Source of the DNA: a virus
Lineage: Duplodnaviria; Caudoviricetes
Virus record (IMG/VR): IMGVR_UViG_3300042350_003801
Direction: 5' to 3' (one strand)
DNA: 64,000 nt
Shown here one piece after another: positions 879 to 51,994 of the stretch. The notes beneath the pieces were generated by a model. That model was not told where the DNA came from. It saw only the letters and a program-made list of their open reading frames with translations, and ran no database searches. The stretch's first letter is position 1, and the number at the start of each line of letters is the position of its first letter. The translations under genes and the position numbers were made by a program.

Positions 879-1301
879 TCACTCTGGTATATTTAAATAA
901 TCTTCAGCCATATGTATTTTTACTTTTTGATTACTTTTCGGTTTGGATAATCTCAGTCCAAGCCATTTTTCACACTTGTTGGGGTTAACATAATAGCATT
1001 TATCCGTATCTGGACAATAAATGCACATTAAATCTAATTCATTTTTATCGTAATCTTTATGATGTGAGCCATTTCTGTCGGCCCAAGATGTTCCAAAACG
1101 TACATTAATTACGTTATTATTAGCCGCTCTATATTTAACTTGAACTCTTTTAAAAATGCCGTCTTTATACGCGACTAAATCAAAAGATTCGTGCTCTGTA
1201 TGCGGGGTAAGAATTAAATAACCCTTTTCATACAAATCAAGTTGGGCTTTTAACACACCAAGGTCGCCTTTATTTTTAGTATGGTGATACCTCATACTCA
1301 T
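879..1301 (-). CDS. free-standing PD-(D/E)XK homing endonuclease, I-Ssp6803I-like (PDDEXK_5)
   Basis: TKNKGDLGVLKAQLDL..GY, FDLVAYKDG..RVQVKY motifs; AAGGAG RBS. Confidence 0.8.
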   Translation of the reverse strand: MSMRYHHTKNKGDLGVLKAQLDLYEKGYLILTPHTEHESFDLVAYKDGIFKRVQVKYRAANNNVINVRFGTSWADRNGSHHKDYDKNELDLMCIYCPDTDKCYYVNPNKCEKWLGLRLSKPKSNQKVKIHMAEDYLNIPE

Positions 1302-1402
1302 ATTCTCCTTTATTAAGTTCGCATTTCTATTTATAAAAATGGGGAGGTTGAACCTCCCCGGAGCCTTAAAGGTGCGAACTTAATAAGGCATCTCTATTTA
1401 TA
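1302..1402 (-). promoter_or_regulatory. double late promoter with 14-bp complementary arms and an internal hairpin controlling the endonuclease
   Basis: TATAAATA at 1395-1402 and 1328-1335; inverted repeat 1310-1323/1373-1386; GGGGAGG/CCTCCCC hairpin 1341-1359. Confidence 0.7.
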
Positions 1403-1420
1403 GTAGAAGAATAATTTCAA

Positions 1421-1705
1421 CGAGAACGGCGTGACTCGAACACGCGACTTACTGCTTAGCTTACCACTACGGATTTCCCCGCCATTTCTGTTTGTGGTCT
1501 GGACCATCTCTTCATCTTATCTTACGACTTAGATGCTTCCCGTATGGCCTCTACACGTTCAGGATTTCTCCCGCTTCGCTCGGGATTGCCATAGTCTTAC
1601 GACTTTAGGGTTCCCCGAATTTGAGAAGTTACATTTATGAAGTTTCCCTCGTAAAGCTCCTATTTTCGAAGGCAGTTGTTCTAAATCCAACTGAACTACG
1701 TTCCC
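1421..1705 (-). tRNA. trnR: tRNA-Arg(UCU), intron-containing (exons 1669-1705 and 1421-1459)
   Basis: Joined exons give GGGAACG-TA-GTTC..GAAC-A-ACTGC-CTTCTAA-GCAGT-AAGTC-GCGTG-TTCGAGT-CACGC-CGTTCTC-G. Confidence 0.9.
1460..1668 (-). mobile_element. group I self-splicing intron, 209 nt, no ORF
   Basis: 5' splice after U, terminal G; P AAAUUCGGGGAA, Q GGCAAUCCCGAGC, R GUAGAGGCCAUACGG, S AAGAGAUGGUCC; P7 GGCCAU/AUGGUC; P1 CUU|C..GGAG with U-G pair; P10 UAG/CUA. Confidence 0.9.
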
Positions 1706-4836: not shown

Positions 4837-5295
4837 ATGTGGCTGTATAATAATCAAGTTCTTGAAACTGTTCCAGAAGGAATGGAGGGGTTTGTATATC
4901 TTATTGAGAACTTAACAAACAATAAGAAATACATCGGTAAAAAGCACTTCTGGGAAAGGAGAAAGGACCGTAAGACGGGTAGAAGAAAGACAAAAGAGAG
5001 CAGTTGGCAATCTTATATGGGGAGTTGCGATGAATTGATTGCCGATTATAAAGAACTAGGAAGGGTAAACTTCAGGAAAACTATTCTTTATCTTTGCCCG
5101 CATAAGAAATCAATGTCTTATTTTGAAACATTAGAGCAGTTCAAAAGAGATGTTATTATGCGCGAAGATTATTACAATACTAATGTTGAAGGCAAGTTTT
5201 TCACTTCAGAGAAAGACAACATTTACAGTAAGGTTTTAATATCTGAAACGGTTCAAGACCAATCTTCAAACATAAATCCACTTGCAGTTGAATAG
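4837..5295 (+). CDS. GIY-YIG nuclease family protein
   Basis: GFVYLIENLTNNKKYIGKK motif; CATAAATA late promoter upstream. Confidence 0.8.
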   Translation: MWLYNNQVLETVPEGMEGFVYLIENLTNNKKYIGKKHFWERRKDRKTGRRKTKESSWQSYMGSCDELIADYKELGRVNFRKTILYLCPHKKSMSYFETLEQFKRDVIMREDYYNTNVEGKFFTSEKDNIYSKVLISETVQDQSSNINPLAVE

Positions 5296-50491: not shown

Positions 50492-51994
50492 ATGTCACTT
50501 CTTAAACGGGTAATACAAGACAATTGGATTGGCAGACAATTTATTAAGATTGCAACAAATGCCAGTCTTAAAACTCAGATTGAACATCAAACATCTTTTC
50601 TTGATGGATATTATCCAAATATAAAACTAAAACAACGGGCATTTGTTCTTCTGAATGATTTAACAGAGGAGCAACTGCCTTATTGTCGTTGTGGTTGCGG
50701 CAGAAGGGCCAGTCTTAATAGAGAACCCGATAAAGGGTTCAGTAAGTATTTTAACGAGGATTGTCACAGAAGAGCACCAAAGATTTCTGATAATGCCCTT
50801 GAAAAACTTTCCAATAAAGATTGGCTATTTGAGCAGAGAATAACGCTCAAGAAAGCCATTGGGACTATTGGAGATGAACTGGGTGTCTCACACGTTTCCG
50901 TTGATAAGTGGTTAAAAAAGCACGGGATTAAACAACTTAAAATTTCAAGAATACGCAATTTAGAAGGTTATAGTGTTATTGATGATAAAGAAAAACTTGT
51001 AAATCTTTACGATTCTGGTTTAACGTGTCAACAAATAGCCGAGCCTTTAAATGTAACAAGGGGCGCTATTGCCAGAACTTTAAAAAGTTATGGGGTTAAA
51101 TTGAGACCCTCAAACTCTTACGAAAGAACTGTTAAGAAAGTCAGTGGAGAAGAGCAAGAACTTATTGATTTTATTGGGGAAATATACAAAGATGAGATTT
51201 TAACTTCTAATCGTTCTGTTCTTAATGGACGAGAACTTGATATTTATCTACCCAAACATAATCTTGCAATTGAATATAATGGCCTCTATAGTCATTCTTA
51301 TAAACCTTGGGAAGAAAGGGAAAGTCTTATTAAGGGACCAAACTACCACTTATCTAAAACCGTTGATTGTGAAAAATTAGGTATTCAACTAATTCACATT
51401 TTTAGCGATGAGTGGAACTACCGGCAGGCAATCGTTAAGTCTATTTTAAAAAGTAAGTTGGGTATCAATGAACGGATTTATGCCCGAAAATGTTCTATTG
51501 TTGAAGTTGATATTGATAGCAAGAATAAATTCTTAAATGATAATCATATTCAAGGTGAAGATAAATCCAGTATTAAACTTGGCCTGGAATATGAAAGAGT
51601 TCTTGTATGTTTAATGACTTTTAATAAGTCAAGATTTAATAAAAAATATGAGTGGGAATTGGTGAGATTTTGTAATACTAGTGGTATTAATGTTGTTGGT
51701 GGGTTTAGTAGATTGTTGTCTTATTTTAGAACTAATTTTGGGGGTTCTATTATTTCTTATGCTGATAGGCGTTATTCTGATGGTGGGGTGTACTTTAAGA
51801 ATGGATTTGAGTTGATACGTGTTAATAAGCCTGGGTATTATTATGTTGATAAGAACTATTTGATTCGTCATAATAGAATGAAGTTTCAGAAGAAACTTAT
51901 CGGAGCTTATGATTGTACTGAGTATGAAAAAGCCAGGGAAATGGGATTCAATAAGATATTTGATTGTGGTAGTTTGAGTTTTGGGGTGAATTAA
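50492..51994 (+). CDS. Hef-like/DUF559 homing endonuclease
   Basis: CRCGCG, HTH-like repeats, ELDIY.P..NLAIEYNG, IHIFSDEW, IYARKC, SYADRRYS.G, IFDCG. Confidence 0.8.
   Translation: MSLLKRVIQDNWIGRQFIKIATNASLKTQIEHQTSFLDGYYPNIKLKQRAFVLLNDLTEEQLPYCRCGCGRRASLNREPDKGFSKYFNEDCHRRAPKISDNALEKLSNKDWLFEQRITLKKAIGTIGDELGVSHVSVDKWLKKHGIKQLKISRIRNLEGYSVIDDKEKLVNLYDSGLTCQQIAEPLNVTRGAIARTLKSYGVKLRPSNSYERTVKKVSGEEQELIDFIGEIYKDEILTSNRSVLNGRELDIYLPKHNLAIEYNGLYSHSYKPWEERESLIKGPNYHLSKTVDCEKLGIQLIHIFSDEWNYRQAIVKSILKSKLGINERIYARKCSIVEVDIDSKNKFLNDNHIQGEDKSSIKLGLEYERVLVCLMTFNKSRFNKKYEWELVRFCNTSGINVVGGFSRLLSYFRTNFGGSIISYADRRYSDGGVYFKNGFELIRVNKPGYYYVDKNYLIRHNRMKFQKKLIGAYDCTEYEKAREMGFNKIFDCGSLSFGVN

Follow-up and report, generated by a model that had tools for sequence, protein, structure and literature searches.

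The 64,000-nucleotide (nt) DNA stretch IMGVR_UViG_3300042350_003801 from IMG/VR (the window, meaning the whole stretch analyzed) carried a transfer RNA gene, tRNA-Arg(UCU), split by a group I intron without an open reading frame (ORF), and, shortly downstream, a free-standing gene for a PD-(D/E)XK nuclease of the I-Ssp6803I family; tRNA, intron, and nuclease gene all lay on the minus strand. On balance, and with modest confidence, we regard the locus as a collaborative (trans) homing module in which an ORF-less intron is paired with a neighboring nuclease. This reading was favored because relatives of the nuclease are encoded inside introns at the same site, because the layout recurred, and because nucleases were enriched beside intron-bearing alleles. 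The source of the window is an uncultured freshwater T4-like phage of the cyanophage type, with genes for a T4-type DNA polymerase, helicases, ribonucleotide reductase, and a major head protein showing 79.6% identity with its counterpart in Synechococcus phages B3 and B23; no close DNA relative of the window was found among GenBank phages. The locus was found in lake-water metagenomes from several studies, and the intron was present wherever contigs spanned its position. In 19 large genes of the window, AGA was the commonest arginine codon (45% of arginine codons), and therefore tRNA-Arg(UCU) should matter to the phage.

The pre-tRNA reads GGGAACG...ACUGC-CUU, 209 nt of intron, and CUAA-GCAGU...CGUUCUC-G. 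An initial annotation, made from the DNA alone, had proposed a 209-nt ORF-less intron after U34 of tRNA-Arg(UCU), and the analysis confirmed this position, between U34 and C35. The joined exons gave a canonical 76-nt tRNA-Arg(UCU) with an intact cloverleaf and a tct anticodon in ARAGORN; the split gene was overlooked by ARAGORN at its default settings, and CCA was not encoded in the 3' exon. The Rfam family RF00028 matched at 1678..1478 with 66.2 bits (gathering score 50, E = 1.4e-14). An internal guide, 5'-UAGGAG-3' at 1662..1657, was complementary to the ligated CUU/CUA (the slash marks the exon junction): the exon CUU pairs with the GAG of the guide in P1, where a U.G pair marks the 5' splice site, and the UAG of the guide pairs with the CUA of the 3' exon in P10. 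The terminal base of the intron was G1460, the P7 strands lay at about 1549..1546 and 1505..1502, and there was no meaningful ORF inside the intron. In an alignment fold of 15 introns of tRNA-Arg genes, 38 of the 58 predicted pairs showed compensatory changes, in tRNA stems as well as intron helices. The compensated helices included the split anticodon stem, P2, P3, P5, P6, P8, and P9, and the acceptor, D, and anticodon stems covaried among the 15 homologues. The P7 pseudoknot pairing was maintained through a U-A to C-G change specific to the window and its relative L007, and an A-U to U-A exchange in P7 also occurred among the aligned introns. Variants from lakes had a change at position 1651 that turned a C.A mismatch of P2 into a U-A pair. 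Judged by its sequence, the intron is a conserved ribozyme with P1, P10, the terminal G, P3-P9, and P7 intact.

The initial annotation had also placed an I-Ssp6803I-family nuclease about 120 nt downstream, and this assignment held: the ORF starts 119 nt past the tRNA, and its sole Pfam match was PF11645 (PDDEXK_5, E = 3.3e-36). The nuclease profile matched the Protein Data Bank (PDB) entry 2OST, which is I-Ssp6803I, with E = 2.2e-14. The AlphaFold model (predicted local distance difference test, pLDDT, 84.9) had the same entry as its best Foldseek match (template modeling score, TM, 0.71; E = 1.3e-9). The residues K11-G12-D13, D41, and Q54-x-K56 were invariant in the alignment and aligned to 2OST, and the catalytic residues are presumably among them. 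The gene lies outside the intron, unlike those of the intron-encoded family members.

The 119-nt leader of the nuclease gene had a predicted folding energy of -39.1 kcal/mol (z = -4.5), and its Shine-Dalgarno sequence was paired. A long-range stem surrounded a terminator-like GC hairpin with a U run and a TATAAATA motif (Table 1), and the homologous leader of L007 contained compensating changes in the stem. In the genes of I-TevI, SegB, and MobE, a late promoter is located within such a hairpin, and translation is from late transcripts only (PMC2988022). By analogy, TATAAATA is probably the late promoter here. The leader also contained TGCCTTATTAAG at 1379-1390 (minus strand), which resembled the ligated junction TGCCTT/CTAAG. 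It was the sole match in the window and, with 0.64 expected, was not significant; it may serve as an operator comparable to that of I-TevI, but it was noticed post hoc.

Table 1. Features of the split tRNA locus and of the HNH genes of two sister phages (window positions unless a locus is named)
Feature	Coordinates	Strand	Basis
tRNA-Arg(UCU) 5' exon, 37 nt, ends CCUU; acceptor, D arm, 5' strand of anticodon stem, loop bases C32 U33 U34	1705..1669	-	Sequence read; ARAGORN on spliced product
ORF-less group I intron, 209 nt	1668..1460	-	Rfam RF00028
tRNA-Arg(UCU) 3' exon, 39 nt; C35 U36 A37 A38, 3' strand of anticodon stem, variable loop, T arm, acceptor, discriminator G	1459..1421	-	Sequence read; ARAGORN; covariation
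Nuclease-gene leader, 119 nt	1420..1302	-	Fold; homologous leader in L007
TATAAATA motifs in leader	1402..1395 and 1335..1328	-	
Arms of long-range stem in leader	1388..1373 and 1323..1307	-	
Terminator-like GC hairpin and U run	1359..1335	-	
Shine-Dalgarno AAGGAG	1310..1305	-	
Free-standing PD-(D/E)XK homing-endonuclease gene, 140 amino acids, I-Ssp6803I / PDDEXK_5 family	1301..879	-	Pfam; 2OST profile; fold
HNH endonuclease gene	L034:11049-11519; L122:8616-9086	-	Pfam HNH_2

The link between this nuclease and the insertion site was evident in its more distant relatives. In about 60 relatives with 47-62% identity, the nuclease gene was contained in a group I intron whose position in tRNA-Arg(UCU), between CTT and CTAA, was exactly the same. 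This arrangement was found in two viral contigs (L003/L142 and L143), in about 18-20 metagenome contigs, and in bacteria of many phyla, at 42 loci and 14 probable ones among the loci read in the best 80 of 147 matched species genomes. Since these relatives are encoded at the U34/C35 position, their target must span the insertion site. Cultured bacteria whose tRNA-Arg(UCU) intron contains the nuclease gene included Exiguobacterium mexicanum MM and Lysinibacillus sphaericus OT4b.31; the loci of cultured bacteria carrying the element were L299, L340, L325, L338, and L347. The layout of the window, an ORF-less intron with a nuclease gene downstream, recurred in three further lineages. The first was L076/L148, where the 91%-identical sister of L076, L150, followed an intronless tRNA with the loop UUUCUAC; the second was L169/L191; and the third comprised Rossellomorea oryzaecorticis ZC255, Paenibacillus sp. 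BSR1-1, and Cytobacillus gottheilii CCUG 59876.

In the phylogenetic tree, the tRNA-Arg(UCU) nucleases formed a clade apart from a tRNA-Thr-linked clade (support 100/96), and the nuclease clade is dedicated to tRNA-Arg(UCU). Free-standing and intron-encoded states were interspersed, and the base of the tree was a polytomy. The only free-standing nucleases clearly nested within an intron-encoded clade were those of the L176 group (97/86), which indicates that escape of the nuclease from the intron does happen. In a smaller tree, the window nuclease was the sister of a marine free-standing clade (98/92). As a separate observation, a 41%-identical PDDEXK_5 gene filled an insert of 415 nt that interrupts a phage tRNA-Asn in its anticodon loop (L004/L147, 1272-1760), and no group I core was detected in this insert.

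Relatives of the intron were found in IMG/VR by means of one 16-mer of the P7 region, which matched at least 119 loci, mostly group I introns of phage tRNA genes. Among these loci, the commonest host was tRNA-Leu(UAA); tRNA-Arg(UCU) was the host of 18 introns between U34 and C35 and of six between U33 and U34. Insertion between CUU and CUAA was common to 18 viral and more than 60 bacterial tRNA-Arg(UCU) loci. The closest pre-tRNAs were those of L034 (81.7% identity), L007 (81.4%), and L032/L037/L122 and others (approximately 77%), and the phages L034, L032, L122, and L094 shared synteny with the window. The class inserted one base earlier (L027, L051, L062, L070, L071, and L113) had a guide GGG that fits its exon CCU. 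When the U34/C35 introns were collected by the intron motif alone, a nuclease was found inside or beside 10 of the 18 alleles.

In eight loci of sister phages, the place of the PD-(D/E)XK gene was taken by a gene for a 156-amino-acid HNH endonuclease, which started 48 nt past the intron-bearing tRNA-Arg(UCU). This protein matched Pfam HNH_2 (E-values from 2e-8 to 8e-8) and is unrelated to the window nuclease; its leader contained a hairpin enclosing TATAAATA. A census at 83% identity or higher gave 31 IMG/VR loci (L216-L246), of which 26 had the HNH gene past an intron-bearing allele, two past an intronless allele, and two past a 47-nt remnant of the intron. Remoter HNH copies and their remnants followed intronless tRNA-Arg(UCU) genes, and no HNH of this kind was found in the cyanophage records of the GenBank phage collection. 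In the two loci with the remnant, L242 (approximately 1035-1150) and L243, a window-like tRNA-Arg carried the 47 nt at the intron position and was followed by the HNH gene, and two bases of its anticodon loop were gone; these loci probably represent a decayed intron in a dead tRNA.

From these results we propose the following mechanism for a two-part selfish module, intron plus free-standing nuclease, in a freshwater T4-like phage. The intron must splice out to give a tRNA that reads AGA. The nuclease would be translated probably only late in infection, from the TATAAATA promoter located within the hairpin that hides its ribosome binding site. During mixed infection, the enzyme would most likely cut tRNA-Arg(UCU) alleles that lack both intron and nuclease, in or near the DNA of the anticodon arm, a natural near-palindrome. 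Repair templated by the genome of this phage would transfer the nuclease gene and, by co-conversion over about 120-330 nt, the intron. In the genome of the phage itself, the presumed target would be split by the intron.

Several observations weigh against collaborative homing, and above all against protection by the intron. All 18 of the closest relatives of the window nuclease, 17 from IMG/VR (71-88% identity) and one from Sf-FR1, a Synechococcus phage in culture (72%), followed an intronless tRNA-Arg(UCU), with the nuclease gene 56-67 nt past three or four different alleles. The intronless alleles of L130 and L134 had a 13-bp (base-pair) anticodon-arm core identical to that of the ligated exons of the window. 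Because the nuclease occurs beside intronless alleles, some with the same core, the intron is not required for self-protection. The claim of the initial annotation that the intron immunizes this allele was therefore not borne out; of its broader proposal of collaborative homing, the layout and the linkage to the site stood. Near-identical nucleases adjoined three different tRNA-Arg alleles, and the boundary of identity coincided with the 3' end of the tRNA, a hint that the cut may lie close to the 3' flank. Most copies of the intron lineage of the window were accompanied by the HNH gene or by no nuclease, and L094 and L007 were intron-bearing relatives without any nuclease. Co-occurrence, which had been suggested as a check, was seen in the form of a nuclease at 10 of 18 alleles, and it did not extend to most of the lineage in the PD-(D/E)XK form; such counts lack phylogenetic independence. 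Four lake runs, including one from RNA, yielded neither spliced nor intronless contigs; the contig of the RNA library spanned only 843-1059 and may be DNA carry-over. Finally, in T4, the GIY-YIG endonuclease SegB is encoded between tRNA-Arg and tRNA-Ile and cuts the tRNA intergenic region (PMC2988022). Immunity conferred by the intron is accordingly a weak part of the model, given the intronless surroundings of the closest relatives. Recognition may reach beyond the 13-bp core, because I-Ssp6803I reads 23 bp (PMC3384342); the nucleases beside intronless alleles with the same core either have such a longer recognition sequence or cut elsewhere, as SegB does.

These points lend themselves to another explanation, which we consider possible but rather unlikely: the intron and the nuclease would be independent elements on a shared hot spot. 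The nuclease would home without an intron in the manner of SegB, the intron would be at most a hitch-hiker conferring no immunity, and the target would be the 3' flank of tRNA-Arg or features of the tRNA alleles unrelated to the insertion point. The free-standing state of the 18 closest nucleases agrees with this explanation, as does their common leader, which begins exactly at the 3' end of divergent tRNA alleles. With PD-(D/E)XK, HNH, and the GIY-YIG enzyme SegB all encoded after tRNA-Arg, three unrelated nuclease families use the slot. Moreover, the intron and nuclease lineages of the window have different nearest relatives, and therefore their pairing arose by recombination. However, dozens of clade members are encoded inside introns between U34 and C35, which ties the ancestral specificity to this site, and the enrichment of nucleases beside intron alleles, both in the motif-based collection and in the HNH census, is at odds with independence. 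In addition, in some intronless alleles that bear the nuclease, the anticodon loop was odd or the 30:40 pair was flipped, which is what escape from cutting of the anticodon arm would be expected to produce, although L342 was a counter-example. In contrast to the enrichment beside intron-bearing alleles, Sf-FR1 was the only Synechococcus phage record with this PD-(D/E)XK nuclease in the GenBank phage collection. In a polymorphism comparison bearing on target-site immunity, limited to few sequences, alleles of the Sf-FR1 type differed from those of the nuclease-free phages S-8S53, S-8S55, and S-PRM1 at anticodon-stem pairs 27:43 and 28:42 but also elsewhere. No intronless allele identical to the exons of the window was found in IMG/VR with an exact 28-mer.

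It is improbable that the nuclease no longer serves homing and, either inactive or co-opted for cutting host or rival-phage DNA or for junction resolution, was left at its ancestral place. The fold is common to Holliday-junction resolvases and the nuclease domains of SPARDA, and relatives in the Bacillus cereus group were distant from any tRNA; against this, the ORF is full-length with all invariant motif residues kept, the gene is scattered patchily over related phages in the way of selfish genes, and it has a dedicated leader of the T4 homing-endonuclease type. That the interrupted tRNA is dead, with a non-splicing intron and a decaying module, is very improbable, since the lack of spliced contigs in the lake runs and the 47-nt remnant of L242/L243 are outweighed by the intact cloverleaf, the compensatory changes in an intact intron core, the population variant that mends P2, and the rank of AGA as the main arginine codon of the phage.

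We compared the collaborative homing module proposed here with known systems. I-Ssp6803I is encoded in the group I intron that splits tRNA-fMet in Synechocystis PCC 6803, according to Bonocora and Shub 2001 and Zhao et al. 2007 as described in PMC3384342 and PMC3984707. It shares with the window the nuclease family and fold and the class of target gene, a tRNA gene in which a group I intron in the anticodon loop breaks up the pseudo-palindromic DNA of the anticodon arm. The window differs in having tRNA-Arg(UCU) instead of tRNA-fMet, a nuclease gene outside the intron, a phage host, and approximately 20% identity to 2OST. Collaborative homing has been described for the psbA intron of cyanophage S-PM2 with the free-standing F-CphI and for T4 mobE with the nrdB intron (PMC3984707; PMC2790892). 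The intron-encoded relatives of our nuclease fit the route to mobile introns proposed from these systems; in the window, however, the host is a tRNA gene instead of a protein gene, the nuclease is of the PD-(D/E)XK type, and coincidence of the cut site with the insertion point is a presumption. The segB gene of T4 sits in the corresponding place, immediately past tRNA-Arg within the tRNA cluster, and is under a similar control by a hairpin and an internal late promoter (PMC2988022; PMC2330249), but the window nuclease is not a GIY-YIG enzyme and T4 has no intron there.

The T4 tRNA-Arg beside SegB is presumably the UCU species. The intron itself, going by the Rfam alignment, probably resembles the small bacterial IC3-type introns of Azoarcus tRNA-Ile and Anabaena tRNA-Leu, with a length of about 200 nt, three-base P1 and P10 pairings with anticodon-loop bases, and reliance on the anticodon stem formed by the exons. 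In tRNA-Leu(UAA), the intron is inserted at the same position, between U34 and N35. The initial annotation had not counted Arg(UCU) among the known bacterial intron hosts. The novelty of this host fails: tRNA-Arg(UCU) group I introns were reported in Beggiatoaceae (MacGregor 2013, as cited in Flood 2016, PMC4853749), with the same tRNA, insertion after the third anticodon-loop base, and homology to the window intron. The Williams 2020 preprint (bioRxiv 10.1101/2020.01.27.920355) counts 21 bacterial tRNA types with interruptions, up from four, and mentions neither phages nor endonucleases. The reports of Flood 2016 and Williams 2020 concern bacterial genomes only, whereas the window intron is from a phage. 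A full-text literature search outside subscription journals returned nothing on group I introns of phage tRNAs or on nucleases linked to Arg(UCU) beyond the papers cited, and no description of the phage module, of a nuclease clade in three states, or of the exchange between HNH and PD-(D/E)XK nucleases.

Other features of the window were also noted. A stretch at 500-654 (core 614-648) contained 35 nt identical to 23S ribosomal RNA (rRNA) and matched Pseudomonas phage pf16 at 100%; the core had a huge read depth, and contigs continued from it into rRNA sequence. The segment 1733-2231, just upstream of the tRNA and including a small ORF (1838-2101), was replaced by approximately 30 nt in variants from other lakes and is thus an insertion/deletion polymorphism. 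An intergenic motif of approximately 45 nt, which reads AAACTGGCACACGC...CCCCGTT... on the minus strand, was repeated around the tRNA region at about 707-745, 2108-2155, and 2236-2285; it may represent either a promoter of the phage or a small family of repeats. Two further homing-endonuclease-like ORFs lay on the plus strand: a SegE-like GIY-YIG ORF at 4837-5295 (Pfam SegE_GIY-YIG, 1.5e-33), conserved in the sister phage L034, and a 500-amino-acid ORF at 50492-51994 (phrog_3339, 4.6e-104) with helix-turn-helix (HTH) motifs. The latter adjoined the major head gene on the opposite strand, which recalls the antisense segD of T4 between genes 23 and 24.

The assembly of an ORF-less ribozyme with a free nuclease has so far been argued from two phage systems, both in protein-coding genes. 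Here, a single nuclease clade, tied to a single insertion site of one tRNA, occurred in three configurations, and a second nuclease family occupied the same slot. We suggest, tentatively, that the locus keeps every stage in the proposed birth, or the break-up, of a mobile intron, namely a free nuclease with an intronless target, a free nuclease with an ORF-less intron, and a nuclease inside the intron, and that the unrelated PD-(D/E)XK, HNH, and GIY-YIG nucleases converged independently on the slot in T4-like phages. Culturable handles make the model testable: phage Sf-FR1, the Bacillota with the layout of the window, and Exiguobacterium and Lysinibacillus with the intron-encoded form. Group I introns in phage tRNA genes were common in uncultured phages, unlike the statement of a 2014 review that all known phage introns are in protein-coding genes; standard tRNA finders overlook such intron-split genes. 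If the window enzyme and the HNH endonuclease both cut between CTT and CTAA, the locus would represent collaborative homing with a tRNA gene as its object, and, contrary to reviews, introns would have regular hosts in the tRNA genes of phages.

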